Sequence record: OQ223306
Length of the DNA stretch: 50,597 nucleotides
From: Shigella phage S2_02
Direction: 5' to 3' (one strand)
Under the pieces are notes generated by a model. The model was given only the letters and a program-made list of their open reading frames with translations. It had not been told where the DNA came from and ran no database searches. Shown one piece after another: positions 5,108-50,597 of this stretch (its first letter is position 1; the number at the start of each line of letters is the position of its first letter). Both the position numbers and the translations under genes were made by a program.

Positions 5108-5214
5108 GGAGAAAACACTATGCCAGACTTTTCTAATTGGAATAACGAGCCGCCATCATTTCAGGAGTTGCTATTTTGCCTCCTGATCCTGACACTATCT
5201 CTTAAGGGTGTTTT

Positions 5215-8501: not shown

Positions 8502-8524
8502 ACCCGCTTCGGCGGGTTTTTTTA
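8502..8524 (+). terminator. Rho-independent terminator closing the rightward early region
   Basis: CCCGC-TTCG-GCGGG hairpin followed by T7. Confidence 0.7.
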
Positions 8525-8535
8525 TGCCTGCAATA

Positions 8536-8561
8536 TGGTAAAATAACACTAAATGTTAAAC
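8536..8561 (+). promoter_or_regulatory. Putative late promoter (extended -10 TGgTAAAAT) overlapped by box copy AATAACACTAAATGTTAAAC
   Basis: TGGTAAAAT 8536-8544; box 8542-8561 spans predicted start and abuts TerS SD. Confidence 0.4.
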
Positions 8562-8576
8562 AAAGAGGATGGATTT

Positions 8577-9101
8577 ATGAGTGAACCTAAGAACGTTCCC
8601 GTTGTTCAGGGGGGTAATTTCAAAGAGCTATACAAGAAAAAGTTCGGCACTGTTCTTGCGAAGAACCGGGCAATGACACCAGAGCAACTATTCGATCTGT
8701 CAGTGAAGTATTTCGAATGGGCCGAGGACAACGCAATCAAGGCGTCAGAATCAGCCAGCTTTCAGGGTGGCGTTTATGAATCGCTTGTCCATAAGCCGCG
8801 CGTCTTCACCTGGACCGGATACCGACTATTTATCGGTGCAAGCGAGGCTGCAATCATTAAGTGGAAGCGAGAGGAAGAGTACAGTGAGGTTATGGAGTTT
8901 GTGGAATCGGTAATCAACGAGCAAAAATTCCAGCTTGCCGCCAACGGTGTTATTAATGCCTCCTTTATCGGTAAGGATCTCGGAATCGATAAGCCAACCT
9001 CAATAAATATCGAAAACTCGTCAGCCTCCGCATCGACAGTAGTCGCCACTACTGAGGATGCAATGAAGGACGCGGTAGACAAGGTTATTGGATTGCTGTA
9101 G
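8577..9101 (+). CDS. terS: terminase small subunit (174 aa)
   Basis: ORF-track frame 8553..9101; ATG 8577 has SD AGAGGA; position immediately upstream of TerL in packaging module. Confidence 0.55.
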   Translation: MSEPKNVPVVQGGNFKELYKKKFGTVLAKNRAMTPEQLFDLSVKYFEWAEDNAIKASESASFQGGVYESLVHKPRVFTWTGYRLFIGASEAAIIKWKREEEYSEVMEFVESVINEQKFQLAANGVINASFIGKDLGIDKPTSINIENSSASASTVVATTEDAMKDAVDKVIGLL

Positions 9102-11242: not shown

Positions 11243-11260
11243 TAAATGAGATATAATCAA

Positions 11261-11287
11261 GGCTGTCAATTGACGGCCTTTTTTATT
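11261..11287 (+). terminator. Hairpin + T-run between TerL and portal (attenuator-like)
   Basis: GGCTGTCAATTGACGGCC palindrome followed by TTTTTTATT, then SD GGAGGA of portal. Confidence 0.45.
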
Positions 11288-11296
11288 GGAGGAAAC

Positions 11297-12580
11297 ATGA
11301 AAATTGTTAAGCATGATGGATATAACGATATCTTTAACGGCGGTGCAGACGGATCGCCTAAGCCATTCTTTATGTCTGATGCATCATATCACGTAGGATC
11401 TTTCTACAACGACAACGCAACCGCGAAGCGAATTGTGGATGTTATCCCGGAAGAGATGGTGACGGCTGGATTTAAAATGTCAGGCGTCAAGGATGAAAAA
11501 GAGTTCAAGTCTCTGTGGGATAGTTACAAAATTGATTCTAGCTTGGTTGACGTTCTTTGCTGGGCGAGACTATACGGTGGGGCTGCTATTGTGGCAATCA
11601 TCAAAGACAACAGAATGCTAACCAGCCCCGTTAAACCTGGCGCTAAACTTGAGGGCGTGCGTGTTTACGATCGATTTGCAATCACCGTTGAAAAGAGAGT
11701 AACCAATGCTCGATCGCCTCGCTATGGTGAGCCTGAGATATACAAGGTATCTCCTGGCGATAATCTTCAACCTTACTTAATCCACCACACAAGAATTTTT
11801 ATTGCTGATGGTGAGCGAGTAACCCCTCAGATTCGCAAGCAGAATCAGGGGTGGGGTGCTTCAGTTTTGAATAAGTCACTGATTGATGCAATCTGCGACT
11901 ACGACTATTGCGAATCACTTGCGACTCAGATCCTGCGGCGTAAGCAACAGGCGGTATGGAAGGTCAAAGGTCTTGCCGAAATGTGCGATGATGACGATGC
12001 TCAGTATGCTGCGCGCCTGCGACTTGCTCAGGTTGATGACAACTCCGGAGTAGGCCGTGCGATCGGTATCGATGCTGAGACGGAAGAATACGATGTTCTA
12101 AACTCTGATATCAGCGGAGTGCCTGAGTTCTTATCGAGCAAGATGGATCGTATTGTTTCCCTTTCAGGGATTCATGAGATTATCATCAAAAATAAGAACG
12201 TAGGCGGCGTATCAGCGAGCCAAAACACAGCGCTTGAGACTTTCTATAAGCTGGTAGATCGTAAGCGTGAGGAAGATTACAGGCCTCTTCTTGAGTTCTT
12301 GCTGCCGTTCATTGTTGACGAGCAAGAGTGGTCGATCGAGTTTGAGCCTTTGTCTGTTCCGAGTAAGAAAGAGGAATCAGAGATCACGAAGAATAACGTT
12401 GAGTCAGTCACGAAAGCTATCACTGAGCAAATCATCGATCTGGAAGAAGCTCGAGACACGTTGCGATCCATTGCCCCTGAGTTCAAACTCAAGGATGGTA
12501 ATAACATCAACATTCGCGAACAGGAAGAAACAACCGAACCGGAACCGGGATTAGGGGAGAAGTTAGAAGATGAAAATTAA
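11297..12580 (+). CDS. portal protein (427 aa)
   Basis: ORF-track frame 11246..12580; ATG 11297 has SD GGAGGA; size and position after TerL. Confidence 0.85.
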   Translation: MKIVKHDGYNDIFNGGADGSPKPFFMSDASYHVGSFYNDNATAKRIVDVIPEEMVTAGFKMSGVKDEKEFKSLWDSYKIDSSLVDVLCWARLYGGAAIVAIIKDNRMLTSPVKPGAKLEGVRVYDRFAITVEKRVTNARSPRYGEPEIYKVSPGDNLQPYLIHHTRIFIADGERVTPQIRKQNQGWGASVLNKSLIDAICDYDYCESLATQILRRKQQAVWKVKGLAEMCDDDDAQYAARLRLAQVDDNSGVGRAIGIDAETEEYDVLNSDISGVPEFLSSKMDRIVSLSGIHEIIIKNKNVGGVSASQNTALETFYKLVDRKREEDYRPLLEFLLPFIVDEQEWSIEFEPLSVPSKKEESEITKNNVESVTKAITEQIIDLEEARDTLRSIAPEFKLKDGNNINIREQEETTEPEPGLGEKLEDEN

Positions 12581-14948: not shown

Positions 14949-14982
14949 GGGGACTATCCTTTTTTGGATAGTCCTTTTTTTA
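14949..14982 (+). terminator. Rho-independent terminator between capsid paralogs
   Basis: 9-bp stem GGACTATCC/GGATAGTCC, T6 loop, T7 tail. Confidence 0.65.
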
Positions 14983-14995
14983 TGGAGAAATCATT

Positions 14996-15775: not shown

Positions 15776-15803
15776 TTGACGCTTTAACAAAAAGTGCTAT
15801 TAT
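15776..15803 (+). promoter_or_regulatory. Putative sigma70-type promoter for major capsid gene (TTGACG-16-TATTAT) with box copy in the spacer
   Basis: TTGACG 15776-15781, TATTAT 15798-15803; reverse-orientation box 15781-15801 fills the spacer. Confidence 0.45.
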
Positions 15804-15806
15804 TGA

Positions 15807-15836
15807 AGCCGTGAACATAATCACGGCTTTTTTATT
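15807..15836 (+). terminator. Hairpin + T-run upstream of major capsid gene
   Basis: GCCGTGA-acataa-TCACGGC followed by T6. Confidence 0.5.
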
Positions 15837-15854
15837 AACTACGGAGAAGTAATC

Positions 15855-16814: not shown

Positions 16815-16821
16815 TATTATA

Positions 16822-16848
16822 GGGGCTAACTTAGTTAGTCCCTTTTTT
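16822..16848 (+). terminator. Rho-independent terminator after major capsid gene
   Basis: GGGGCTAA/TTAGTCCC stem (one G-T) followed by T6. Confidence 0.6.
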
Positions 16849-16863
16849 ATTGGAGAAATCAAA

Positions 16864-17156: not shown

Positions 17157-17183
17157 AAGGCGCTCACGTAGCGCCTTTTTTTA
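17157..17183 (+). terminator. Rho-independent terminator
   Basis: AAGGCGC-tcacgta-GCGCCTT followed by T7. Confidence 0.6.
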
Positions 17184-17195
17184 TGGGGGTAAATT

Positions 17196-19484: not shown

Positions 19485-19510
19485 GGGGGCTTGCGCCCCC
19501 TTGTTCATTT
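19485..19510 (+). terminator. Hairpin after major tail gene (weak U tract)
   Basis: GGGGGC-ttgc-GCCCCC followed by TTGTTCATTT. Confidence 0.45.
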
Positions 19511-19565
19511 CTGTAAAATCATCCTATCAACTTTATTCAATTAACTTTTAACAAAAAGTGCTATC
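19491..19565 (+). promoter_or_regulatory. Putative promoter for tail chaperone (TTGCGC-17-TAAAAT) with box copy in 5' UTR
   Basis: -35 TTGCGC 19491-19496 inside hairpin, -10 TAAAAT 19514-19519, reverse-orientation box 19545-19565 just before SD. Confidence 0.4.
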
Positions 19566-19585: not shown

Positions 19586-19903
19586 ATGGCTAAATTCAAT
19601 TTCGTGTTGGGCCAGCTTCCAGACTTCAAACTTCCGGTGACGTTCACCATGCCAAACGGCGAGGATGCGACTATTATTTTTACAGTACGCCACCTTTCCA
19701 GTAAAGAAGTGCAAGATATGTATGCAAAGCAGGGCGAAATGAATGATAGCGATTTCATCACTAAGATCGCGTCAGGCTGGAATCTGGAAGAAGAATTTAA
19801 CGAAGAGAATGCGCGTAAACTGGTGCAGTATTATCCTTCCGCAGCATACAATCTGACGGCAACTTACATCAAGGCGCTCGCCGGACACCGCGCAAAAAAC
19901 TAA
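19586..19903 (+). CDS. tail assembly chaperone (G-like) (105 aa)
   Basis: ORF track; position before tape measure; ends at TAA directly after slippery heptamer. Confidence 0.7.
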   Translation: MAKFNFVLGQLPDFKLPVTFTMPNGEDATIIFTVRHLSSKEVQDMYAKQGEMNDSDFITKIASGWNLEEEFNEENARKLVQYYPSAAYNLTATYIKALAGHRAKN

Positions 19904-20220
19904 AAAGGGCGGTTTATCTGTTATATCAGAAACCGCCAACAGAAGAGCAATTAAGATCGGTTGGCCTCAGTCTTTCTGACTATGAAGACGAGGAACCGGA
20001 AACGATAATCGGCGATGCTGAAATGGTGAAGGCGTGGAATGTTTTTACGTCAATGCTCACTCAGTGGAGAAGTTCAGGCGCTGGAGCTTATGGTCTTGAC
20101 TATAATGTTTTGCCTATGTTGTTCAAAATCTATAAAATAGAAGATGAAGAACTGGCATTGCAGGACGTTAGGATCATGGAAGCGAAAGCGCTTGAAATGA
20201 TTGCTAAGCAAAACAACTAA
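19586..20220 (+). CDS. tail assembly chaperone frameshift fusion product (G-T-like)
   Basis: -1 shift at 19894-19900 joins 19586 frame to frame of ORF 20023..20220 with no intervening stop. Confidence 0.6.
19894..19900 (+). other. -1 programmed ribosomal frameshift slippery heptamer A_AAA_AAC
   Basis: X_XXY_YYZ heptamer in chaperone frame immediately before its stop; -1 frame is open to 20220. Confidence 0.65.
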
Positions 20221-20242
20221 GCCGCCGTTTGGCGGTTTTTTC
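20221..20242 (+). terminator. Hairpin + T-run between chaperone and tape measure genes
   Basis: CCGCC-gttt-GGCGG followed by T6. Confidence 0.45.
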
Positions 20243-20258
20243 GTATATAGGGGGTTAT

Positions 20259-23225
20259 ATGGTTGATAAGGTAGCAGGTCTATCTCTTGACGTTGACGTG
20301 TCAACAGTTCAGCGCGCGGTCAAGTCACTGAAAGAGTTTTCAAGGGCCAACGACCAGGCCGCTGATTCTATGGGTTCTTTAATCAATGAGGCCGAGGTTG
20401 CAAAACAGAAGGCTAAAGAACACGCAGAGCAACTCAAGCGACAGAGAAAAGAGTACGAAGCGGTAGAGAAAGCAATCGATCCTACAGTTGCAAAAATGGA
20501 GAGGTTAAAAGTTACTTCCCAGCAGCTTGATAAACTCTGGCAGCAAGGCGTTATTCCAGATGACACGTTTTTCCGTTTAGGTGAAATGCTTGAGACGCAG
20601 AATAACGCGCTCATCAAGTCACGCTCTATGTTGACAGTGGAGGGGCGTGCTGCGGCGGAGAATGCCAAGCAGAAAGCCAGGGCCAAAGTTGATGCTGATA
20701 ACTTCATTCGAAGCCTTGAGCGTCAAGCTCAAGCGGCTACGATGACGAAGCAAGAAATGCTTGAGCTTAGGGCGGCTGAGTTGGGCGTATCGGACAAAGC
20801 GTCTCCTTTGATTTCTAAGTTAAATCAGCAAACGGAAGCATTCAAACTCAGCGGAATCTCAGCGGGTCAATACCGAAACGCAATGAAGATGCTACCTGCG
20901 CAGATTACTGATGTTGTAACATCAATGGCGACTGGGATGCCGATATGGATGGTTGCCATCCAGCAGGGCGGACAGATCAGCGATTCATTCGGCGGAATTG
21001 GTAACGCGATGCAGTTAGCGAAGGATGGCGTGATTGATTATATATCATCTATTACAGAGCTTAAATCAGCATTCGCAGATGTAAGAACCTTGGGTCAAGA
21101 TGCGATTGCCAGATTCGGACGTGCGGCAACGATTTTCGGCGGCGGCATTTTCACAGCGGTTGCTGCTATTGGTTATGCGGCTTACTCCTCATACTCTGAG
21201 CTGAGTGAGCTTCAAAGAGCTATCGTTCTGAGCGGTGGATATGCGGTTCAATCAGCGGCTGAAATGGATACATTGACCGATTCGATCACCAAAAACAGCA
21301 AGGGAAGCGGAGGAGCGGTTAAGGATATCGCTGCATCCATGGCTAAGTCTGGCAAGTACACATCCGATCAAATCAAAATCATCACCGCATCCACTGCGGA
21401 TTGGGCGACAGTAACAGGAACAAGCGCAGATAAGATCATTGCGGAGTTCGATAAGATTGCAAAAGATCCGGTTAGCGGACTGGCGGAGTTAAACAAGACA
21501 TATAACTTCCTAGAGAAAGGCCAGTTAACATACATCAACAATCTTAAGAAAACGGAAGGTCAAACTGCGGCGGTTACTGCTGCGACGAAAATTTTCGCCG
21601 ATGTAATGGATGATCGAATTGAAAAGCTTGCGGAATCAGCAAACCCACTAGAGAAAATGTGGTGGAATATCAAGAAATGGTCTAGCGACGCGTGGGATTC
21701 CGTTTCCGACAGGACGCTAGGGGCGCTAAATCTGATCACCGATGTAGTTGCTGGCACGCTTGAGCAGGTCAAGGTTATCCTCAACTATGGCGATCAGTAC
21801 ATTGGGGAGTTCGTCATTTCAGCTACAAAGGCGATGCAAGGGATTCCTGGTATGGGAACTTTCGGTCAATCGGTGATCGACGAGCAGCAGAAAATTGTTG
21901 ACGCAGCCAAAAAACAAAACGATGAGTTGTCAAAATCCATCGCAGAGCGAGACGCTAGGATCAGAAAGGGGGAAATGGGCTACTCGGAAGCGAGCAAGAA
22001 TGAGAAGGTAGGAGACGGTTATTCGTCAAAAACAAAAGACGCTGTAGACAAAGAGGCCGAGGCTCTAAAAAAAGTAAACAAGGAAAAGAAATATTCAGTA
22101 GATCAGGGGAATAAAATCACCGATCAGTACGAAATGGATATTGTCGCCTTGCAGTCTCAGCTAAAAGTACTGCAGGAGCATAAGACCATCAACGACAGCA
22201 TCAGCCATCAGCGCAAAACGCAATGGAACGAGCAAGCGCGGATACTGATTCTGGAGGGTATCGCGGCGGATCAGAAAAGTAGAGCGCTGACGCAGGAAGA
22301 GAAATCAATCCTTTTAAACAAGGCCAAGATTCTAGACCTTGCGGAACAGAAAGCGGTGTTGGGGGATCAGATTGTTAAGCAGCAGCAGTTGAACGATCTT
22401 ACCGATAAATCACTGAAATTTGTTAATGATTTTACGGCAGCTACAGAGCGGCTAAACGCGTCTCGCGGGATGAGCACCCGAGAAATGGAACGGCAAGCTG
22501 AGTTGGCTAAGATCACCACTGATTATATTAATGCAGGTGGCAGCGAAGGAGACGAGAAACTTCAGAACATGATTAAGGCGCAAAATGATTACTACGCTGC
22601 GGAAGATGCCAAGCGAGCTGACTGGTTGGCAGGTGCTGAAAGTGCTTTTGCTGATTACGGTGATGCAGCAATGGATATGTACGGCAATGTTAACGAGATC
22701 GCGTCAAGTGCCCTTAACGGAATGTCAGATATGATGGTTCAATTTCTAACCACAGGAAAAGCGAACTTTGAGGACTTTGCGAAAAATATCATCGGCATGA
22801 TTATAAAGATGATTGCTCAGATGGTAATCTTCAATACGATCTCAGGCATGATGGGCGGTAAGACGTGGAGCTTTGCTGGAGGGGCGTCGTCTGGTGCTTC
22901 TGCGGCATCACAGGCAACCCCTACGCCTGCTGCTTCTGTTTTTAGATCTGTATCTTCCGGCGGGGCCGCTGTATCACTTGCTGCCGCAGCGGGTAGCGTG
23001 GCAACCTCTGGATTCAACGCATCAAACTCGGCGCCAAAGGTGGTAAACCATTCAGGAGGTGGAACAGTCGTTGATGTAAGTGGCATGGAGGTGAGAGTTG
23101 ACAACGGTTCAGATCCGAGGGGGATTTCTCAGGGTGTAGAAATGATGTTCAAAAAAATGATTCGTGAGTCTTGTTCGCAGGGCGGCGAGGTTTATAATTA
23201 CATTCAGGAAAAAACAGGAGGTTAA
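20259..23225 (+). CDS. tail tape measure protein (988 aa)
   Basis: ORF-track frame 20229..23225; ATG 20259; long Ala/Gln/Lys-rich protein with C-terminal Gly/Ala/Ser-rich hydrophobic region, downstream of G/GT. Confidence 0.85.
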
Positions 23226-23227
23226 TA

Positions 23228-23581
23228 ATGGCGACACTTGACACTTTCGGTTGGTGTACGCAGGTTCAAGGGGGCGGTGGCTCCCTTACCACTACCAATA
23301 ATGACCGCTCAATCCAGTTTGGTAACGGCTACATGCAGCTTGCATCGTCTGGATTTAACACCACTCGACGAGAGTATTCAGTTGTCTATGCTGGGGAAGA
23401 TTTCATGTCTGTTTACGACTTCTGTGACTCTCACCGCATTAAGCCGTTCGCATGGACGCCGCCGGACGGTAAGGTCGGGATATGGGTAGTAAAGCCTAAC
23501 AGTTTGGGAGCGAAGCCAGTATCACGCGACGTGATGGAGATTAACGTCACGTTTATGGAGCAGTTTACATCTATGGATTAA
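23228..23581 (+). CDS. minor tail protein (lambda M-like) (117 aa)
   Basis: ORF track; size and position after tape measure. Confidence 0.6.
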   Translation: MATLDTFGWCTQVQGGGGSLTTTNNDRSIQFGNGYMQLASSGFNTTRREYSVVYAGEDFMSVYDFCDSHRIKPFAWTPPDGKVGIWVVKPNSLGAKPVSRDVMEINVTFMEQFTSMD

Positions 23582-23596
23582 CGCTACATAACAAAA

Positions 23597-23619
23597 GCCC
23601 GCCTTGCGCGGGTTTTTTT
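23597..23619 (+). terminator. Rho-independent terminator (hairpin CCCGCCTTGCGCGGG + T7), copy 1
   Basis: Same 15-nt hairpin recurs at 25777-25791. Confidence 0.65.
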
Positions 23620-23632
23620 GTAGCTGTAGAAT
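23604..23632 (+). promoter_or_regulatory. Putative promoter TTGCGC-17-TAGAAT overlapping terminator
   Basis: -35-like hexamer lies inside the terminator hairpin; -10 at 23627-23632. Confidence 0.35.
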
Positions 23633-23660
23633 GGTTGCAGGTAAACAAGAGGAAAAATCA

Positions 23661-24443
23661 ATGAGCGAAAACAAAAAACTTTATGATGAAGAAAGCGGAA
23701 GAAGCCTGTTTCACAACTGCCTTCAATCACTGTATCCTGGAGAGATAATCACTCTGATCGAAGTGGATGGCAGCAAGTTCGGCGCTCAGGTGTACCGATT
23801 CCACGGTGAGAATATCCAGTACACTCCAGAAGAAATCATGCAGGCCCAGCAAACTGGAACGCTACCGCCGAAAGAAATTACATTCCGTGGCGAGAAATAC
23901 GGGGCGCGACCGTTCGGTATATCCGGGATCTCGTTTGACAGTTCCGGGAAGGCAACAAAACCACAATTAACGGTGGCAAACATTGATAGTCGCGTATCTG
24001 CGATGATTCGTGCATATAACGGACTAATGCAAGCTAAGGTGACTATCTGGATAACTCAGCGTGATCTTATTAACTCCGATGGCTCAATCGCTGATGGAGC
24101 TTACCGTAAACTGGTATACTATATCGAGCGCCCTAACTATGTTGATAAAAGCGTTGCGCGGTTCGATCTCACATCACCTTACGATATGGACGGCATCATG
24201 ATCCCATCTCGACTCACGCAAAGCGCTTGCTATTGGGCACAGAGGGGATGGTATAAAACCGGAAAAGGGTGCGGATACAACGGGCAAAATGGTTACTTCG
24301 ATAAAGACAATAATCCTGTAGACGATCCATCGCTGGATTTTTGCCCAGGAACGGTAACGGCCTGCCGCCTGAGATTCGGCGCAAACAATGAATTGGATTT
24401 TGGCGGTTGCGCTGTCGCTTCACTACAGAGGAAAAATCAATGA
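23661..24443 (+). CDS. minor tail protein (lambda L-like) (260 aa)
   Basis: ORF-track frame 23604..24443; ATG 23661 has SD GAGGAAAAA; Cys-rich C-terminus. Confidence 0.7.
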   Translation: MSENKKLYDEESGRSLFHNCLQSLYPGEIITLIEVDGSKFGAQVYRFHGENIQYTPEEIMQAQQTGTLPPKEITFRGEKYGARPFGISGISFDSSGKATKPQLTVANIDSRVSAMIRAYNGLMQAKVTIWITQRDLINSDGSIADGAYRKLVYYIERPNYVDKSVARFDLTSPYDMDGIMIPSRLTQSACYWAQRGWYKTGKGCGYNGQNGYFDKDNNPVDDPSLDFCPGTVTACRLRFGANNELDFGGCAVASLQRKNQ

Positions 24444-25174
24444 TTAGTGCAAAAATTAAACTTGAAATTATGACTCACGCTCAGGAAGAATACCCCCGCG
24501 AATGCTGCGGGGTAGTCACCCAAAAGGGCCGCGTGCAAAAATACCATCGCATTGATAATGTGCATCGTGATCCCGAGAATCATTTCATGATGGATGCTGT
24601 ACAATACGCTTGCATTGAGGACGATGCGGAATCAACAACAATAGCAATTGTTCACAGCCACACAGGAGACGGGGCTACAACCCTACCAAGCGCTCACGAT
24701 ACGTGCATGTGCAACGAGATGGAAGTTACCTGGATTATTGTTAGCGTGCCGGAAGGGGATATGCGATTTGTGAAGCCGGAGAAATTGCCTCTGATTGGTC
24801 GTCCGTGGTCATTAGGATCATTCGACTGTTACGGTCTTGTTATGGCGTGGCACAAAGAGCACGGCGTAGAATTGCGCGATCGCCGATTGAATTTTGAATG
24901 GTGGAAACCTGAGTACGGAATTAATCTCTATCAGGATTATTACAAGCAGGATGGCTTCGTTGAGATTCCAGATCAGAATAATCCGTCATTCGGTGATATG
25001 GTAATCATGCAGATAGGGCAAAACGTTCCGGTATGGAACCATGCAGGGATTTACCTGGGAGATAATCAGATCTTGCATCATGCCTTCGGTAAGTTATCGC
25101 GACGTGATATTTATTCAGGCTGGTATCAGGATCACACCGTTTTGATTGTTCGCCATAAGGATCTCAAATTATGA
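24440..25174 (+). CDS. tail assembly protein (lambda K-like; JAMM/MPN + NlpC/P60-like) (244 aa)
   Basis: ORF-track frame 24407..25174; ATGA overlap; HSHTGDG...SAHD metal-binding motif and Cys-containing second domain. Confidence 0.8.
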   Translation: MISAKIKLEIMTHAQEEYPRECCGVVTQKGRVQKYHRIDNVHRDPENHFMMDAVQYACIEDDAESTTIAIVHSHTGDGATTLPSAHDTCMCNEMEVTWIIVSVPEGDMRFVKPEKLPLIGRPWSLGSFDCYGLVMAWHKEHGVELRDRRLNFEWWKPEYGINLYQDYYKQDGFVEIPDQNNPSFGDMVIMQIGQNVPVWNHAGIYLGDNQILHHAFGKLSRRDIYSGWYQDHTVLIVRHKDLKL

Positions 25175-25770
25175 ACGATGTAAAAGTAATCAAATTATCC
25201 GGTTCACTTGGGAGACGCTTCGGCGTCTTTCACCGATTTGCTGTTGACTCTTACCCGGAAGCTATCCGGGCGCTATCCAGTCAGGTGGACGGATTTAAAG
25301 AATACATGCAAAGCGAGGTAGGATCTCGTAGCAAGTTTGCAATATTTGTGGATGGCGTTAACGTGGGCCACCATGAAGAGGAAAAATTCAAGTGCGCGAA
25401 AGAGATAAGAATCGTACCTATCCCTACTGGCTCTAAGACAGGAGGTCTATTCCAGGTTGTATTGGGCGCGGCAATAATGGTTGCAGCATTCTATACTGGC
25501 GGCGCGTCTCTAGCTTTAATGGGAACAATGTCCTCGTCTCTGTTTATGATGGGCGGCGCTATGGTGCTTGGCGGTGTGATGCAGATGATTTCACCTCAGC
25601 CTGGTGGCGCAAACTTTGAAGTTCAATCAAGCAAGAATAAACCTTCGTACGCGTTCGGCGGTGCTGTCAATACGACGGCGGCGGGATACCCTCTCCCGGT
25701 CCCGTATGGATATCGCGCCGGAGGTGGCGCAACTTTCTCAGCAGGTTCTTATGCCGAGGATATGAGTTAA
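25171..25770 (+). CDS. tail assembly protein (lambda I-like) (199 aa)
   Basis: ORF track; hydrophobic Gly/Ala-rich central segment; position between K-like and J-like genes. Confidence 0.7.
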   Translation: MNDVKVIKLSGSLGRRFGVFHRFAVDSYPEAIRALSSQVDGFKEYMQSEVGSRSKFAIFVDGVNVGHHEEEKFKCAKEIRIVPIPTGSKTGGLFQVVLGAAIMVAAFYTGGASLALMGTMSSSLFMMGGAMVLGGVMQMISPQPGGANFEVQSSKNKPSYAFGGAVNTTAAGYPLPVPYGYRAGGGATFSAGSYAEDMS

Positions 25771-25775
25771 AATTA

Positions 25776-25799
25776 ACCCGCCTTGCGCGGGTTTTTTTT
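25776..25799 (+). terminator. Rho-independent terminator (hairpin CCCGCCTTGCGCGGG + T8), copy 2
   Basis: Hairpin sequence identical to 23598-23612. Confidence 0.65.
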
Positions 25800-25839
25800 C
25801 GCCTGTATAATGGGTTCACCGATAAATAGCACAAAAAGG
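25783..25839 (+). promoter_or_regulatory. Putative promoter for J (TTGCGC-17-TATAAT) with box-like AATAGCACAAAAAGG in 5' UTR
   Basis: -35 inside terminator hairpin, TATAAT 25806-25811, box-like sequence 25825-25839 adjoining SD. Confidence 0.4.
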
Positions 25840-25847
25840 TAAACATC

Positions 25848-28800
25848 ATGATTCAAAAAGTGATAAGCGGATCTAAAGGTGGGTCACAGAAGCCTCATAA
25901 CCCAGTTGAGATGGAAGACAATCTAATCTCAATCAACAAAATCAAGATCCTGTTAGCTGTGTCTGATGGTGAAATTGACGAAACATTCAGCCTAAAGCAG
26001 TTGATGTTTAACTCAGTTCCGGTGCAAAACGAGGATGGATCGTTCAACTTCGAAGGGGTAAAGGCTGAGTTCAGACCGGGAACTCAGACGCAGGAATACA
26101 TCAAGGGCATGGAAGATAGCTCCAGTGAGGTAACTGTAAATCGTGAGGTTACTACCGATAACCCATACACGATCTCAGTAACCAACAAAACGCTGTCGGC
26201 AATCCGTATCAAAATGTTCATGCCTCGCGGCGTACGAATTGAAAGTAACGGAGATAAAAACGGCGTTCGCGTTGAGTACGAAGTGCAACAAGCGGTTGAT
26301 GGCGGTTCGTTTGAGACTGTTCTTACTGACGTAATCGAAGGCAAAACAATGTCAGGTTATGATCGAAGCCGTCGCGTAAACCTTCCTAACTTCAACAATC
26401 AGGTAATATTCAGAGTTGTTCGAAAGACTCCTGACTCCAGTGATTCGAATGTCGTTGATGCAATTCAGGTGAAAAGCTATGCCGAGGTGATTGATGCCAA
26501 ATTCCGTTATCCTCTGACTGGTCTTCTTTTCGTGGAGTTCGATTCGAAGATGTTCCCCAACCAGTTACCTACGATTTCAATTCGTAAGCGCTGGAAGATT
26601 GTAAACGTTCCGTCGAACTACGATCCAGAATCGCGAACATACAACGGCAATTGGGATGGCACTTTCAAAAAAGCATGGACGAATAATCCGGCGTGGGTTC
26701 TTTATGACCTGATGATTAATCAGCGTTACGGCTTGGATCAGAAAGAGCTTGGTATCGCTGTCGATAAATGGGCGCTCTACGAGGCTGCGCAATATTGCGA
26801 TCAGATGGTTCCTGATGGGAAGGGCGGGACGGAACCTCGATACCTTTGCGATGTGATAATCCAGTCTCAAACTGACGCTTACAAGGTTATTCGAGATATT
26901 TGCTCAATCTTTCGAGGTATGAGCTTTTGGAATGGCGAAAGCATTTCGGTAATCATCGACAGGCCGCGTGAGCCTGCGTACATCTTCACTAACGACAACG
27001 TGGTTAATGGTGACTTCTCCTACACGTTTGCAAGCGAAAAGAGCATGTACACGACGTGTAATGTGATGTTTGACGACGAGCAAAACATGTATCAGCAGGA
27101 CGTTGAGCCAGTATTCGATCGTGAGGCTACTCTACGGTTCGGGAACAACGTAACGAGCATTACAGCGATCGGCTGCACACGTCGAAGTGAGGCCAACCGA
27201 CGCGGGAGATGGATTCTGAAAACTAACCTCCGCAGCACTACGGTAAACTTCGCTACCGGGCTTGAAGGTATGATCCCGACAATCGGAGATGTTGTGGCAA
27301 TAGCTGATAACTTCTGGTCAAGCAACTTGACTATGAACCTGTCAGGGCGCTTGCTTGAAGTGTCTGGAAGCCAGATTTTCTTACCGTTCCGAGTGGATGC
27401 GCGCGCAGGTGACTTTATTATCGTAAATAAGCCCGATGGCAAGCCCGTGAAGCGCACAATCTCAAGTGTTAGTGCGGATGGTAAGACTATAGAGATTAAC
27501 ATCGGCTTTGGCTTTCCTGTGAAGCCTAACACGGTATTCGCTATCGACCGCACCGACATTGCGTTACAACAGTACGTCGTGACAAAAATCGACAAGGGAG
27601 ATGATGATGATGAATTTACCTACAAAATCACGGCGGTGGAGTACGATCCTAACAAGTACGATGAGATTGATTACGGAGTTAACATCGACGACAGGCCGAC
27701 GAGCATCGTTGAACCAGATCAGATCCCTAGACCGGAAAACGTGCAAGTGTCCTCAGAGTCACGAATCGTCCAGGGTATGAGCGTAGAAACGATGATCGTT
27801 AGCTGGGATAAAGTGCCGTACGCAGTTTTCTATGATGTCCAGTGGCGAAAGGATAACGGCAACTGGCAAAATGTACCGCAGACGGCAAATAAAGAGGTAT
27901 ACGTTGAAGGTATTTACGCTGGCAACTATCAGGTTCGTGTTCGCTCCGTCGCTGGTTCCGGTACGACTTCAGGATGGTCAAATATCGTAGCTGCGACGCT
28001 GACGGGTAAACAAGGTGAGCCGGGTCGACCGATTAACCTTGCAGCTACGGATGATGTTGTTTTTGGTATCCGTACAAAATGGGGGTTCTCTGATGGTTCT
28101 GGAGATACAGCCTATACGGAGTTGCAACAGTCACCGGATGGAACAGTGGATAACGCAAGTTTGCTTTCTTTGATTCCGTATCCGCAGCATGAGTATTATC
28201 ACTCACCGATGCCTGGAGGGAATATTGTGTGGTATAGGGTAAGGACGGTTGACAGGATCGGTAACGTATCTCAGTGGACTGATTTTGTCAGAGGCATGGC
28301 ATCAACAAACGTTGACGATATCATCGGAGAGATTTCTGTCGATATCGAAAACTCGCCGGGTTACGAGTGGCTTGTTGATAACGCAACCGACAACGCGGCG
28401 CAGAACTCAGCGAACGCAGAGGCAGCAATTGAGAACGCTCTAGCTAATGACAAAGACGCGATCTACATGAAGAAGGAGAACGGAAAACGAAAAGCAGAGT
28501 ACACCAAATCACTGCAACTTATTGCTGATGAGACTCAGGCGAGAGTAACAGCAGTTGAGCAGTTAAGGGCAAGTTTTGGTGATCAGATTAGTGCAAGCAA
28601 TAGCGAATTGCGTGAGGTTATCGCAACCGAGACTGGAGCACTATCGCGTGAGATTGACCAGCTTAAGGCTCAGATTGGTGACGACATTCAGGCAAGTCTG
28701 ACTGATATTCGGGAGGCTATCGCGAACGAGACTGAGGCGAGAACGCAAGCTGACTTGTCGTTAAGCGCGAGGCTTGGAGATAACGAGGCAGCGCTTGCTC

Positions 28801-29297
28801 AAAAATTAGACTCCTGGAGTAATGCTAGTTCGACCGGGGCAATGTACGGCGTCAAGCTGGGTCTGAAATATAACGGTCAGGAATACAGTGCAGGCATGGC
28901 TATGTCTCTGATTGGTTCCGGCGCAGCGGTTAAGGCGCAAATTCTATTCGAAGCGTCACGATTTGCAATCATGACAGGGATGAAAGGCCAGACTCAGTAT
29001 CCTTTCGTGGTTGAGAATGGTCAAGTTATCCTGAGTAGCGCGATCATTAAGGATGGCTTTATTACTAATGCCATGATTGGAAACTGGATTCAATCTAACA
29101 ATTGGGATGGGAATAATGGATGGGCCATAAACAAGAATGGCGACGCTTCATTCATGAATGCAACAGTGAGGGGTAGAATTTACGCAAATAACGGAGAGTT
29201 TGCATTTAACGGAACAAATAACACGGTTCAGATAAACAATAACGGTATCACGGTCAACCTACCTAACGGGGGCCGAGTGGTTGTTGGTGTCTGGTAA
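25848..29297 (+). CDS. central tail fibre / host specificity protein (lambda J-like) (1149 aa)
   Basis: ORF track; size and position at end of tail module. Confidence 0.85.
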   Translation: MIQKVISGSKGGSQKPHNPVEMEDNLISINKIKILLAVSDGEIDETFSLKQLMFNSVPVQNEDGSFNFEGVKAEFRPGTQTQEYIKGMEDSSSEVTVNREVTTDNPYTISVTNKTLSAIRIKMFMPRGVRIESNGDKNGVRVEYEVQQAVDGGSFETVLTDVIEGKTMSGYDRSRRVNLPNFNNQVIFRVVRKTPDSSDSNVVDAIQVKSYAEVIDAKFRYPLTGLLFVEFDSKMFPNQLPTISIRKRWKIVNVPSNYDPESRTYNGNWDGTFKKAWTNNPAWVLYDLMINQRYGLDQKELGIAVDKWALYEAAQYCDQMVPDGKGGTEPRYLCDVIIQSQTDAYKVIRDICSIFRGMSFWNGESISVIIDRPREPAYIFTNDNVVNGDFSYTFASEKSMYTTCNVMFDDEQNMYQQDVEPVFDREATLRFGNNVTSITAIGCTRRSEANRRGRWILKTNLRSTTVNFATGLEGMIPTIGDVVAIADNFWSSNLTMNLSGRLLEVSGSQIFLPFRVDARAGDFIIVNKPDGKPVKRTISSVSADGKTIEINIGFGFPVKPNTVFAIDRTDIALQQYVVTKIDKGDDDDEFTYKITAVEYDPNKYDEIDYGVNIDDRPTSIVEPDQIPRPENVQVSSESRIVQGMSVETMIVSWDKVPYAVFYDVQWRKDNGNWQNVPQTANKEVYVEGIYAGNYQVRVRSVAGSGTTSGWSNIVAATLTGKQGEPGRPINLAATDDVVFGIRTKWGFSDGSGDTAYTELQQSPDGTVDNASLLSLIPYPQHEYYHSPMPGGNIVWYRVRTVDRIGNVSQWTDFVRGMASTNVDDIIGEISVDIENSPGYEWLVDNATDNAAQNSANAEAAIENALANDKDAIYMKKENGKRKAEYTKSLQLIADETQARVTAVEQLRASFGDQISASNSELREVIATETGALSREIDQLKAQIGDDIQASLTDIREAIANETEARTQADLSLSARLGDNEAALAQKLDSWSNASSTGAMYGVKLGLKYNGQEYSAGMAMSLIGSGAAVKAQILFEASRFAIMTGMKGQTQYPFVVENGQVILSSAIIKDGFITNAMIGNWIQSNNWDGNNGWAINKNGDASFMNATVRGRIYANNGEFAFNGTNNTVQINNNGITVNLPNGGRVVVGVW

Positions 29298-29300
29298 CAG

Positions 29301-29330
29301 AAAGGGGCCGATTGGCCCCCTTTTTTTTAA
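29301..29330. terminator. Bidirectional Rho-independent terminator
   Basis: GGGGCC-gatt-GGCCCC flanked by A3 upstream and T8 downstream; sits between convergent genes. Confidence 0.7.
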
Positions 29331-30983: not shown

Positions 30984-31011
30984 TTGACTAAACTCTGTTA
31001 ATGGCTATAAT
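30984..31011 (+). promoter_or_regulatory. Putative strong sigma70 promoter for exonuclease operon (TTGACT-16-TATAAT)
   Basis: TTGACT 30984-30989, TATAAT 31006-31011; about 30 nt upstream of ATG 31043. Confidence 0.6.
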
Positions 31012-31042: not shown

Positions 31043-32107
31043 ATGTTCCAGGTATTCACATCAAGTCAGCTTTCTAATGACGAGTATCATAGCAACGAAG
31101 GTTGGGCGGCAGAGTATGTAAGCGGTTCGAGCCTTGCAGAAATTTATCAGACTTGCCCGGCTAACTGGCGATTCAAGAAGAACGAGACTACTAAAGCGCT
31201 GGAGTTCGGCACTCAGTCGCACACTAACTTTGAGAGTCGAGATCTGTTTACTGCAACGTATGCGCGTTGTCCTGCTCCGTCAGAGTTTAAAGATCTTATT
31301 ACTTCGCAAACGGCACTGGCAGCAAAATTAAAATCTTTTGGCCTGAAAGGTACATCCGGTAAGCAGTACCCTGACCTCATCAAAATGATGGTTGATTGCG
31401 GTGAAGATCTCAATGTTCAATATCTTATTGAACTGATTGCTGAAGCTGAGGCGCGCGCTGAAGGAAAGCAACTGGTTGACGCTGATAAATATGATGCCTG
31501 CATGAAGATGAGGGCCATTCTTGAGCAAAACCCAGATCATGAATCGTGCATCAATAGCGAAACTGCGCAGCGTGAGATCTCAATTTTCGGTGAGATATCC
31601 GGCGTCAAGGTTAAGGTTCGACTTGACCATTTGGACTACAAAGAGAATGTACCAGGTCGTGTACTGACTGGTTATGATGAGAATGGTGATCCGGTATTTG
31701 AAGACGTAATTTTCCCGGAAGCACTGATTATCACAGATTTCAAAACTACGATGAGCGCCAACCCGTTAGAGTTCCCGAGACTGGCATACAATCACGGCTA
31801 TTACCTGAAGATGGCATTGCAGCATGACCTGCTACGTCGCGCAATCCAGGCTGGCGCTTTTGAAGGAAACTTCCCGGAAGATATTCCGATCGTAGTTCGA
31901 TTGCTTGCGCAGGAGAAAAAAGAGCCTTATATCGCACTGGCTTACCGTATGACTATGGAGCAAATCAGGATCGGTCGTAACCAGTACATTAGCGTAGTCC
32001 ACACTTACAAGGCTTGCTCTGAAATGGATGTTTGGCCTGGGTACGCTGGCGACGCAAGCGAGATCGAACTTGAAACGCCATCATGGGTGCGTTACCAAAA
32101 TAAGTAA
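31043..32107 (+). CDS. putative recombination exonuclease (PD-(D/E)XK-type) (354 aa)
   Basis: ORF track; motif region IITDFKTT...YNHGYYLKMALQ resembles D..E.K nuclease core; adjacent to Erf and SSB. Confidence 0.55.
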   Translation: MFQVFTSSQLSNDEYHSNEGWAAEYVSGSSLAEIYQTCPANWRFKKNETTKALEFGTQSHTNFESRDLFTATYARCPAPSEFKDLITSQTALAAKLKSFGLKGTSGKQYPDLIKMMVDCGEDLNVQYLIELIAEAEARAEGKQLVDADKYDACMKMRAILEQNPDHESCINSETAQREISIFGEISGVKVKVRLDHLDYKENVPGRVLTGYDENGDPVFEDVIFPEALIITDFKTTMSANPLEFPRLAYNHGYYLKMALQHDLLRRAIQAGAFEGNFPEDIPIVVRLLAQEKKEPYIALAYRMTMEQIRIGRNQYISVVHTYKACSEMDVWPGYAGDASEIELETPSWVRYQNK

Positions 32108-36150: not shown

Positions 36151-36217
36151 AAAATAAAAAACGCGTAGAAGGATGTTAACCCGCTACGCGTCGTTTGTTT
36201 TAACTAAAAATGCTATT
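36151..36217 (-). promoter_or_regulatory. Minus-strand module: box + 18 bp + TAACAT overlapping hairpin/T-run terminator, upstream of primase
   Basis: Box (revcomp AATAGCATTTTTAGTTAAAAC) 36197-36217 contains stop of upstream gene; -10-like at 36173-36178; hairpin ACGCGTAG/CTACGCGT 36161-36191 then U-run. Confidence 0.45.
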
Positions 36218-36652
36218 GGTCGTTCCGATATCTTCCTTCTTCACGACGCGCATAAATTTCTTGTTCTTGCATCTCTTCTCTAGGCACTTGCCGTTACCGT
36301 CAAACTTGAGGTCGAATCGCAACCATGCGGCGCGGAATCCTTTACAACCCTGACGACGGTAAGCACGATGTGCAGCTTCAGCACCTTGCCACGAAATCAT
36401 GTTGCGCTCCTTCCATCCCTGCACGGTCTGATTGCTAACTTTCAGAGCCTTTGCGCAAGCCGCCGGACCACCATAATATTCAATAAGAGCATCCAATCGC
36501 GCTCTCAGTCCTGCGCGCGTTTCTTCTTTATGGATATAAAATCCGCAGCGCTGGCGAGGCTTTTTATCTTTACCGCGTCGTGTTCCGTTGTTACCATTGA
36601 TGTGACGTTTATCGATTTCACCAGTAGACTCTGCGATACGTTTCATATTCAT
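36200..36652 (-). CDS. putative helix-turn-helix DNA-binding protein (150 aa); candidate regulator
   Basis: ORF-track frame 36200..36724; ATG 36652 has SD AGGAG; basic N-terminus and HTH-like segment PAACAKALKVSNQTVQGWKER; function unverified. Confidence 0.5.
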   Translation of the reverse strand: MNMKRIAESTGEIDKRHINGNNGTRRGKDKKPRQRCGFYIHKEETRAGLRARLDALIEYYGGPAACAKALKVSNQTVQGWKERNMISWQGAEAAHRAYRRQGCKGFRAAWLRFDLKFDGNGKCLEKRCKNKKFMRVVKKEDIGTTNSIFS

Positions 36653-36663
36653 CTTAATTCTCC

Positions 36664-36732
36664 TGTAGCACTTTTTGCTAAAAACGTTTACTGTATGCCG
36701 TGTATTATATCGTAAACGATACAACGATTCAA
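36664..36732. promoter_or_regulatory. Overlapping divergent promoters: box + 18 bp + TATTAT (plus, helicase) and TTGAAT-17-TATAAT (minus, HTH gene)
   Basis: Box 36664-36684; plus -10 at 36703-36708; minus -35 at 36727-36732 and -10 at 36704-36709; box lies in 5' UTR of the minus transcript. Confidence 0.45.
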
Positions 36733-42940: not shown

Positions 42941-42971
42941 GGGCTGGCATGATTTACATGCTGGCCTTTTT
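42941..42971 (+). terminator. Rho-independent terminator upstream of lysis cassette
   Basis: 10-bp stem GGCTGGCATG/CATGCTGGCC (two G-T pairs) followed by T5. Confidence 0.55.
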
Positions 42972-43037
42972 GCGTTGTATCGAGTAAATTTGAAGGTTAA
43001 AATCGACTCACTTGTTCAAAAAATATATGGTGAGATT

Positions 43038-50470: not shown

Positions 50471-50597
50471 GGGGGGGGAATTGGTGTTACCCAGTTCACC
50501 TGGTAGTCATCTCCATTTTTAGCAAAAAGTGCTATCCATTACGATTACGCTTGATTGTGTGTTAATCCATGTATATGATTTGCCTAAATCGCAATCG
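50471..50597. repeat. Terminal direct repeat copy 2 (identical to 1-127)
   Basis: Exact match to window start; repeat may continue beyond window end. Confidence 0.9.

Follow-up and report, generated by a model that had tools for sequence, protein, structure and literature searches.

Two intergenic elements in the late tail operon of Shigella phage S2_02 (record OQ223306), one between genes M and L (M/L) and one between genes I and J (I/J), are a real and conserved feature, in which a GC hairpin and its T-run are followed, at a constrained distance, by a -10-like hexamer. We regard them as probable promoter-coupled terminators, i.e. intrinsic terminators with a DNA sequence that also supplies the upstream half of a promoter for host sigma70. 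This overlapping stop/start design has already been described in bacteria: the phage elements are a well-conserved example of it, and involve no new mechanism and no change of principle.

Genomic context

The window, i.e. the whole stretch of 50,597 nucleotides analysed here, represents an entire Tunavirus genome, sharing about 96% identity with that of phage T1. The two elements are found among the following features:

23228..23581, + strand: tail gene M (Pfam Phage_min_tail, E 1.4e-25; T1 ST37 orthologue)
23661-24443, + strand: gene L (Pfam Phage_tail_L)
24440-25174, + strand: gene K (Pfam Prok-JAB and NLPC_P60)
25171-25770, + strand: gene I (Pfam Lambda_tail_I)
25848..29297, + strand: gene J, tail tip / host specificity (Pfam FNIII-A_GpJ, Phage-tail_3 and Phage_Tail_Tip)
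29304..29328, + strand: post-J terminator, GGGGCC-GATT-GGCCCC plus T-run (terminator scans; T1 annotation 28568-28594)

M is the final gene of the upstream unit G-H-M, the L-K-I unit (23661..25770, + strand) sits between the M/L and I/J elements, and J is the sole gene of the last unit, closed by the post-J terminator. At M/L and I/J, as well as at a third junction, V/G, tail genes are found on both sides, all on the + strand.

The terminator half of the elements

The original prediction had reported a 15-nt hairpin with a T tract occurring twice, at 23597 and 25776. The sequence CCCGCCTTGCGCGGG, followed by a T-run, is indeed present in exactly two copies on the + strand, at the sites indicated, each starting one base further to the right (23598-23612 and 25777-25791). 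No further match to CCCGCCTTGCGCGGG was found in the window, allowing up to 2 mismatches (chance expectation 0.02). The two terminators are composed as follows:

23598..23619, + strand: M/L intrinsic terminator, stem CCCGC/GCGGG (23598-23602 / 23608-23612), loop CTTGC, T7 at 23613-23619
25777..25799, + strand: I/J intrinsic terminator, same 15-nt hairpin (25777-25791), T8 at 25792-25799

Both sites feature 5 GC pairs, a 5-nt loop and a run of 7 or 8 Ts, the structure expected of an intrinsic terminator. The stems can be lengthened, at M/L by the A-tract found 5' of the hairpin (23593-23596) and at I/J by the AA at 25775-25776: the extensions consist of A-U pairs at both sites and, at M/L, of G-U as well. 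Folding energies are -14.3 kcal/mol for the M/L hairpin (z -2.9 vs shuffles) and -13.6 kcal/mol for the I/J one (z -3.0 vs shuffles). In a first terminator scan, terminator-like calls were made on the + strand for the 25775 copy and on the - strand for both; a second, separate scan recovered both on the + strand. In phage T1 the two sites are already annotated as rho-independent terminators (M/L at 22793-22816, I/J at 24972-24994), and they correspond to T46 and T49 in the annotation of phage TLS. No Rfam family matched anywhere in the window.

The predicted promoter half

Each hairpin had also been proposed to contain a TTGCGC placed exactly 17 bp from a -10, TAGAAT in one copy and TATAAT in the other. 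The coordinates bear this out, and define two predicted sigma70 promoters:

23604..23632, + strand: P(L), -35 TTGCGC (23604-23609), 17-bp spacer, -10 TAGAAT (23627-23632)
25783..25811, + strand: P(J), -35 TTGCGC (25783-25788), 17-bp spacer, -10 TATAAT (25806-25811)

In P(L) the -35 is located within the hairpin loop and 3' arm, while the T-run falls inside the spacer; the putative start is A23639, and the SD, AAGAGGA, is found at 23647-23653. P(J) features a GGG discriminator and a putative start at A25818. Both starts are preceded by a C. Both hexamers feature A2 and T6, and are identical or close to TATAAT (6/6 at P(J), 5/6 at P(L)). The -35 matches TTGACA at 3 positions out of 6, corresponding to the TTG alone, at a spacing of exactly 17 bp: neither P(L) nor P(J) was called by a consensus promoter scan of the window, the -35 being below threshold. 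Promoters at M/L, I/J and V/G are unmarked in the database records examined and in the 2024 re-annotation of TLS, and a full-text literature search for the hairpin and promoter strings returned no match; searches for RNA-seq or mapped transcript ends of T1-like phages yielded nothing of use.

Genome-wide, the pattern TTGNNN-N16-18-TANAAT is found 15 times, vs 8.5 +/- 2.9 in shuffles: being only mildly enriched by itself, it derives its significance from comparative data. A TTG at the boundary between loop and 3' arm is also found in terminators with no downstream -10 (20220, 29304), and is therefore not diagnostic by itself. An extended -10 (TGn) was considered and discarded: it is in canonical position in some lineages only (TGCTATAAT, TGCTACAAT, TGATACAAT), and the TG of the window is one base too close.

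Related units and DR motifs

The M/L and I/J units are not unique in the window, which also contains a third unit at V/G and a degenerate relative before terS:

19485..19519, + strand: third unit, V/G, hairpin GGGGGC-TTGC-GCCCCC (19485-19500), -35 TTGCGC (19491-19496), 17 bp, -10 TAAAAT (19514-19519)
8503..8561, + strand: degenerate relative before terS, hairpin CCCGC-TTCG-GCGGG (8503-8516), T7, weak CAATAT (8531-8536), DR (8543-8561)
25826..25844, + strand: DR-like motif ATAGCACAAAAAGGTAAAC, between the P(J) -10 and the J start codon at 25848, overlapping the SD

The V/G T-run is degraded within the T1 clade and a proper T6-T7 outside it; its putative start is near 19526, followed by a reverse DR (19546-19564, centred at +29) and by the start codon of G at 19586. 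The copy before terS (8503-8536), whose gene starts at 8577, was rejected as a fourth promoter unit, since the various lineages keep just nAnTAT and no TTG.

The DR at I/J, centred at about +17 from the predicted start, corresponds to DR8 of phage TLS. The DR is a 19-nt palindrome of the phage family, and adjoins three of the four late junctions (pre-terS, V/G and I/J), always downstream of the predicted start, with centres from +9 to +29; no copy was found upstream of the hexamers at M/L, I/J and V/G. A separate class of T1-like promoters, by comparison, carries a 19-nt DR exactly 19 nt upstream of the -10 and no -35 (17 out of 22 DRs).

Conservation across relatives

The comparison was extended to about 130 related loci, whose L proteins share 63-99% identity. 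At both M/L and I/J, stem sequences differ among relatives, while the GC hairpin, the T-run and a TAnAAT hexamer are retained. Of 80 related loci, nearly all retain hairpin and T-run, the latter being 5-9 Ts long in almost every lineage. De novo hairpin detection in each lineage revealed at least 7 different stems at M/L and at least 6 at I/J (CCCGC, GCCGC, GGCCCGC, GCCCC, GCGCCC, GCCTCC, CCCCGC, GTCGCGC, CCTGGGGGC and others): structure is conserved over sequence, as expected of an intrinsic terminator. Covariation in a MAFFT alignment of I/J was weakly supportive, with 81.8% of cells paired, 2 double-change pairs and a score reached in 6 out of 500 shuffles, because differences in loop size put the stems out of register.

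Within the alignment of I/J from 22 lineages, positions T1, A2, A4, A5 and T6 of the -10 are invariant and the TTG nearly so, next to a scrambled linker. At M/L the hexamer is found as TATAAT, TACAAT, TAGAAT, TATGAT or GATAAT, and the same five forms, along with TAAAAT and TAATAT, make up the whole repertoire of the junctions: changes fall at positions 3 to 5, once at position 1, and A2 and T6 are always retained.

The TTG of the relatives also lies at the boundary between loop and 3' arm. Where an architecture bears a TTG, the spacer between TTGNNN and the -10 is of 17 bp in all 16 cases at V/G, in 20 out of 21 at I/J and in 10 out of 15 at M/L, natural variants ranging from 15 to 19 bp. T-runs of 2-9 nt and linkers of 5-11 nt are found, and their changes in length compensate each other, holding the spacer: its variance is 0-0.9, vs 1.9-8.3 for T-run plus linker. 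Identity across lineages is also higher in the I/J spacer region, 74-81%, than in the flanking coding DNA, 64-74%. In one natural variant, L010, the I/J hairpin is destroyed and the -10 is intact.

Changed stems, a kept hexamer and a 17-bp spacer, along with the match to a bacterial class of elements discussed below, support the original proposal of terminator-promoter units before L and J, the activity of the promoters being a predicted one.

Alternative explanations

The elements could act as terminators or attenuators only, their -10 and -35 being look-alikes with poor or no binding of polymerase in vivo, and L-K-I and J being transcribed, like the other late genes, only by polymerases reading through leaky terminators. 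An SD directly follows six other late terminators (11259, 14949, 15805, 16821, 17157, 20220): read-through must therefore work, and suffice for essential genes, which makes internal promoters less necessary. A -35 with half of the consensus positions, below the threshold of the scan, points in the same direction, as does the rigorous 2024 analysis of TLS, which called no promoters at these junctions; moreover, at M/L of lineages L047 and L053 the terminator runs straight into the SD with no -10, so that a promoter is dispensable there. Such an account, which we consider rather unlikely, leaves unexplained the invariance of TAnAAT beside a scrambled linker, the distance of 17 bp kept between TTG and hexamer through compensating indels at three junctions, and the conservation of the I/J spacer region above that of coding DNA. 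The hexamer might, on the other hand, be a real promoter element independent of the hairpin TTG, either a -10-only late promoter or one dependent on a phage protein, e.g. a DR-binding factor, the overlap with the hairpin merely reflecting compact spacing. The DR-type class, with no -35, indicates that the phage uses non-canonical upstream elements, a DR adjoins most of the late junctions, and the Rogue1-like clade retains at I/J the -10 but not the TTG (TAGCCT-17-TACAAT). However, any DR present at M/L, I/J or V/G lies downstream of the hexamer, and a strict 17-bp distance from the TTG is what contact of sigma70 with a -35 would predict; we thus find this possibility distinctly unlikely.

Short stems, with 5 GC pairs and energies of about -10 to -14 kcal/mol, and the poor U-run of the V/G copy in the T1 clade would also suit hairpins whose main role is not termination but the stabilisation of RNA 3' ends, processing, or protein binding at a palindrome, and palindromes of bacterial terminators of the same class can be transcription factor sites (LexA, at yobI-ruvA). 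This is very improbable, given the T-run found after the hairpin in almost every lineage, the conservation of pairing and not of stem sequence, which favours an RNA structure over a DNA-binding site, and the lack of an Rfam match. Least credible of all is that the two copies were recently duplicated, or that a short mobile repeat landed by chance in two intergenic spacers, as could be suggested by the identical 15-mer and by 78% identity over 51 nt: the comparative data led us to reject this. Similarity is restricted to the functional pieces, the flanks being unrelated, and a terminator plus -10 is present at both sites across lineages. Hairpins differ between the two sites outside Tunavirus, being typically GCCGCC(T)TTGTGCGGC at M/L and CCCGCC(G)TTGCGCGGG at I/J, and the M/L hairpin of T1 is two steps away from the GCCGCCTTGCGCGGC of the L046 type. 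The hairpins described as duplicated are, accordingly, identical in Tunavirus, but they belong to separate, positionally conserved elements. A sigma70-dependent pause or Q-loading site was also set aside, since the hexamer follows a terminator, far from the late promoters, and no Q-like arrangement is evident.

A model for the junctions

Taking the elements as promoter-coupled terminators, the same DNA would work at two levels. In the RNA, the GC hairpin and U-run would halt part of the polymerases coming from the upstream tail genes. In the DNA, the TTG at the boundary between loop and 3' arm would serve as a -35, what remains of the 3' arm, together with T-run and short linker, as the 17-bp spacer, and TAnAAT as the -10. 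Transcription would restart at A23639 and A25818, about 18-20 bp past the point of termination, and, if the analogy to the bacterial class holds, incoming polymerases should be terminated more strongly when another one occupies the embedded promoter. The M/L, I/J and V/G elements, along with the post-J terminator, would split the tail operon into V, G-H-M, L-K-I and J, self-contained units which may reset transcript levels of the distal, low-copy tail-tip genes.

A more elaborate scheme, to which we assign a low probability, would make of the late operon of Drexlerviridae a regulated relay of terminator-embedded sigma70 promoters, where a DR-binding phage protein switches junctions between stop, restart and block, timing and dosing the tail-tip genes. 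At DR-type promoters elsewhere, a phage DR-binding protein seems to act as an activator, working from about -42. Such a relay, if true, would represent a new control logic of late genes, made of coupled terminator, promoter and operator modules.

Should the embedded promoters be active, T1-like phages would provide the first example of promoter-coupled terminators in a phage, and an unusually clean one, with three units chained in one operon. Their activity would help to explain how host polymerase alone expresses distal tail genes past about a dozen terminators, and a large phage family, employed in therapy and in screens for defence systems, would be better annotated. Natural variants are at hand, with hairpin lost and -10 kept, with -10 lost and hairpin kept, or with spacers of 15-19 bp, and make the model of coupling and interference testable in a small genome.

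Relation to known systems

The definition of promoter-coupled terminators rests on stops and starts of transcription measured in A. baumannii, E. coli and B. subtilis: a termination site lies at most 35 bp upstream of a start on the same strand, with a mode of about 10 bp; the -10 is found just past the T-tract, the DNA of the stem-loop is used as -35, the elements lie between tandem, functionally related genes, and the palindrome of the terminator can double as a transcription factor site, as for LexA at yobI-ruvA (Fletcher et al., bioRxiv 10.64898/2026.08.19.745784). Stronger read-through upon inactivation of the promoter is a further criterion of the class. Phages are not mentioned in that paper. 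The phage elements share this layout, with a T-run ending 6-7 nt before the predicted -10, a putative -35 within loop and 3' arm, and a short spacer between tandem related genes, as found at M/L, I/J and V/G. The dual role proposed for the bacterial elements, restart of transcription and termination reinforced by promoter-bound polymerase, is the one we propose here. In contrast to the measured bacterial ends, those of the phage are predicted, about 18-20 bp apart, within the 35 bp of the definition, though away from the mode of about 10 bp; moreover, a linker of 5-8 nt separates T-run and -10, and the units are chained along one operon.

The present design also agrees with the idea of "transcriptons" in the late region of phage T1, put forward by Roberts, Martin & Kropinski (2004), as cited in PMC11447400; as far as that citation conveys it, it concerns the same type of genome and the same terminators. 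Transcriptons could not be confirmed in the 2024 re-analysis of TLS, where these junctions carry no listed promoter. T1 records have terminators annotated, and not promoters; a description of the embedded -35 and its 17-bp geometry was not found in the literature examined, a set outside which fall Roberts et al. (2004) and the genome paper of Rtp.

Tail genes V-G-H-M-L-K-I-J are homologous, and found in the same order, in the late operon of lambda, where transcription also relies on host RNA polymerase. Lambda uses a single promoter, PR', and Q antitermination through all terminators, resulting in one antiterminated transcript. To our knowledge, no internal terminators or promoters lie between its V-G-H-M-L-K-I-J genes. 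The T1-like operon is, in contrast, punctuated by about 12 terminators, three of which with predicted embedded promoters.

A pairing of terminator and E. coli promoter roles within a short sequence, predicted here, is also featured by the class II terminators of T7, which act as sigma70 promoters (Bao & Forster, bioRxiv 10.64898/2026.02.12.705533). The T7 signals, however, are hairpin-less, serve T7 RNA polymerase and feature an extended TGn -10, while the elements described here are classical hairpin terminators for the host polymerase.

The two hairpins and their setting

The complete genome, of about 50.5 kb, shares about 96% identity with coliphage T1 and is a Tunavirus (family Drexlerviridae); by Pfam, its tail genes stand in the lambda-like order V, G, H, M, L, K, I, J. 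Its two ends (1-127 and 50471-50597) share an exact direct repeat of 127 bp. In a T1-type genome, which is circularly permuted and terminally redundant, this is consistent with overlap in the assembly, rather than with a biological repeat.

The 15-mer CCCGCCTTGCGCGGG is present in exactly two copies, one between M and L and one between I and J, each followed by a T-run, as the original prediction had it; no further match with up to 2 mismatches was found in the window, about 0.02 being expected by chance. Both hairpins fold with about -14 kcal/mol (z about -3 versus shuffles). In each copy the final three loop bases and the initial three bases of the 3' arm form TTGCGC, with a -10-like hexamer exactly 17 bp downstream: the description first given of this arrangement was accurate, its coordinates being off by one base.

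Elements at the two junctions
23598-23612, +, M-L hairpin
23613-23619, +, T7 run
23627-23632, +, -10-like hexamer TAGAAT
25777-25791, +, I-J hairpin
25792-25799, +, T8 run
25806-25811, +, -10-like hexamer TATAAT

The original T1 record, which lists about 21 rho-independent terminators and no promoters, already includes both hairpins among the former (22793-22816 and 24972-24994), and the terminator half of the finding was therefore already known.

Conservation in related phages

The comparison drew on the surroundings of gene L at 80 related loci, with protein identities of 63-99%; the M-L and I-J intergenic spacers were extracted, and hairpins, T-runs and hexamers were located de novo in each distinct architecture. 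Hairpin and T-run are retained nearly everywhere, with widely different stems (CCCGC, GCCGC, GGCCCGC, GCCCC, GCGCCC, GCCTCC, CCCCGC, GTCGCGC and CCTGGGGGC, among others), which is the pattern of an RNA structure under selection. A TAnAAT hexamer lies 3' of the T-run in nearly all lineages. Forms seen over all junctions are TATAAT, TACAAT, TAGAAT, TATGAT, GATAAT, TAAAAT and TAATAT: they differ at positions 3, 4 or 5, and in one case at position 1, A2 and T6 being always retained. In a 22-lineage alignment, positions T, A, A, A and T of the I-J hexamer are invariant, while the adjoining linker is scrambled.

TTGNNN and the hexamer are 17 bp apart in 20 of 21 I-J and 10 of 15 M-L architectures with TTG, while T-runs vary from 3 to 9 nt and linkers from 5 to 10 nt, the rest of the 3' arm being variable too. 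The variance of this distance is 0.2-0.9, versus 1.9-2.2 for T-run plus linker; the lengths of T-run, linker and 3' arm compensate one another. The I-J spacer region is also more conserved (74-81% identity) than flanking coding DNA (64-74%), and an 80-nt query taken from it matched 284 phage records, including phages of Klebsiella, Salmonella, Citrobacter and Serratia.

This is a real feature, and one under selection. The conserved hexamer, the 17-bp spacing and the varied stems of related loci support, as a prediction, the proposal that these are terminator-promoter units; the best-supported reading is that both elements are promoter-coupled intrinsic terminators, with predicted promoter activity.

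Origin of the two identical copies

The hairpin had been described as duplicated. Outside Tunavirus, however, the M-L and I-J hairpins differ from each other, being typically GCCGCC(T)TTGTGCGGC and CCCGCC(G)TTGCGCGGG, respectively, and neither site is empty in any lineage, which makes a recent duplication very unlikely. The likeness of the two copies in the window is limited to the functional pieces. Since hairpins differ elsewhere, and the T1 M-L hairpin is two small steps from GCCGCCTTGCGCGGC, found in the related lineage L046, identity within Tunavirus is best explained by convergence, or by micro-conversion between two old, similar elements.

Further units of similar layout

Genome-wide, TTGNNN-N16-18-TANAAT is found at 15 sites, versus 8.5 +/- 2.9 in shuffles. 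In three of the 15 the TTG lies inside a terminator hairpin: the two described and one at 19491, between tail tube gene V and chaperone gene G.

Elements of the V-G unit
19485-19500, hairpin GGGGGC-TTGC-GCCCCC
19514-19519, TAAAAT, 17 bp downstream of TTGCGC

The V-G geometry is retained in 16 of 16 distinct architectures (36 further loci), with different stems, T-runs and linkers. A diverged copy upstream of terS (8503-8536), put in one family with the two by the repeat finder, was rejected as a further unit: it retains the terminator, but its hexamer, nAnTAT, is weak and it lacks TTG.

At two more terminators a promoter-like site comes next, within about 10-12 nt, adjoining the terminator and not embedded in it.

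Terminators adjoining promoter-like sites
35204-35146, -, terminator, then TTGCAA-17-TAAAAT
42942-43003, +, terminator, then TTGTAT-17-TAAAAT

Because of these two cases, terminator-then-promoter is suggested to be a general layout in this genome.

Proposed mechanism and known systems

RNA hairpin and U-run would halt part of the incoming transcription, while the hairpin DNA would double as the -35 (TTG), and the T-run as the spacer, of a sigma70 promoter. Transcription would resume at A23639 and A25818, the predicted starts, about 18-20 bp beyond the stop; both have a C before them. The two elements, the V-G unit and the terminator that follows J (29304) would together divide the tail operon into V, G-H-M, L-K-I and J.

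An August 2026 preprint by Fletcher et al. (bioRxiv 10.64898/2026.08.19.745784), which makes no mention of phages, describes promoter-coupled terminators of three bacteria (A. baumannii, E. coli and B. subtilis). Defined from Cappable-seq together with Term-seq, they carry a -10 immediately 3' of the T-tract, stem-loop DNA serves as -35, the T-tract aids the promoter, and the elements are enriched between tandem, functionally related genes. The T1 units share the sequence-level features of this class, their ends being predicted; their linker of 5-8 nt puts the predicted stop and start about 18-20 bp apart, compared with a mode of about 10 bp in the class. Embedded promoters are a well-supported prediction, as members of a recently described general class. 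Inactivation of the coupled promoter increases read-through in the bacterial elements (bioRxiv 10.64898/2026.08.19.745784); by this analogy only, we infer that polymerase on the embedded promoter may hinder incoming polymerases and so raise termination efficiency.

The idea of terminator-flanked T1 late "transcriptons" with RpoD promoters stems from the T1 genome paper of 2004, cited for it in PMC11447400. The 2024 re-annotation of phage TLS reports the orthologous terminators T42, T46 and T49, and a DR (the palindromic direct repeat of the family) at I-J, lists no promoter at the M-L, I-J and V-G orthologues, and states that transcriptons cannot be confirmed. Among the best 60 of 284 and the best 60 of 148 GenBank matches, no promoter is annotated inside either hairpin; the sole promoter feature, in OL960578, lies upstream of the M-L terminator. 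A literature search for transcript-end data on T1-like phages found none.

Evidence limiting the promoter prediction

Most other late-operon terminators have a Shine-Dalgarno sequence within a few bases, leaving no room for a promoter. In six of them the T-run is followed by ATTGGAGG or ATGGAG.

Terminators running straight into a Shine-Dalgarno sequence
11259-11297
14949-14993
15805-15850
16821-16861
17157-17195
20220-20250

Portal, major capsid and tail genes must therefore depend on read-through, which requires that these six terminators leak or that some mechanism overrides them. The analysis identified no antiterminator that would let host polymerase through the dozen or so late terminators.

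Several observations cut against a strict promoter requirement. At the related loci L047 and L053 the M-L terminator runs directly into the Shine-Dalgarno sequence, without a -10; in L010 (a Shigella phage vB_SsoS_008-like contig, 5119-5197) the I-J hairpin is destroyed (CCCGCTCCGCATTCA), with T-run and TATAAT intact. The -35 TTGCGC matches consensus at 3 of 6 positions, and a consensus promoter scan of the window called neither site. TTG is also found at the loop/arm boundary of two terminators with no -10 (20220 and 29304), and in the Rogue1-like clade the hexamer lies 17 bp from TAGCCT or TTTACG, not TTG.

In L041 and L042 a 564-bp insertion separates I from J, with a reverse DR copy just before J, and L018, with two T more at each junction, has 19-bp spacers, which could be a homopolymer sequencing error. 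All these natural variants (L010, L047, L053, L041/L042 and L018) would be useful for testing, and the units are of value mainly because they offer a small test system, rich in natural variation, for the coupling of promoter and terminator.

Direct repeats and other promoter-like sites

The DR is the known 19-21 nt repeat of the family, ATAGCACnnnTTGnTAAAA. A -10-like hexamer, mostly TATAGT, lies exactly 19 nt after it in 17 of 22 copies, against a background of about 2% per position; the TLS paper makes no mention of this fixed spacing.

DR copies
+, 1398, 2137, 2956, 3141, 3764, 5417, 6712, 36665, 39659, 40682, 42670
-, 36216, 46317, 46817, 47332, 48448, 49061, 49478
8543-8561, +, late operon, upstream of terS
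15782-15800, -, late operon, upstream of the major capsid gene
19546-19564, -, late operon, upstream of chaperone G
25826-25844, +, late operon, upstream of J

The fixed distance centres the dyad TAGCA-N5-TGCTA at about -42 of the putative start site, a position typical of class II activators, and for this reason DRs resemble the upstream half of promoters in a separate phage class that has no -35.

All four late-operon DRs adjoin an intrinsic terminator just 5' of a key gene, and no DR is found at the M-L unit. Three of the four lie just 3' of where a terminator-associated -10 is predicted to start transcription, centred at about +9, +29 and +17, which resemble operator or roadblock positions. 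On the - strand (19564-19485), the DR at 19564 is followed by 19 nt, TAGGAT and, in reverse, the V-G hairpin, where a short antisense transcript could conceivably end, although the hexamer is weak (4/6) and the U-run poor.

A near-consensus sigma70 promoter, TTGAAT-17-TATAAT (36732-36704, - strand), lies directly upstream of an ORF (36200-36724, - strand) encoding a small protein that matches P22_Cro weakly (E 5.5e-5, below the Pfam cut-off) and whose T1 counterpart is annotated as a transcriptional regulator; this Cro-like protein is a candidate DR binder. Another such promoter, TTGACT-16-TATAAT (30984-31011, + strand), precedes the gene at 31043, exonuclease VIII in the T1 annotation.
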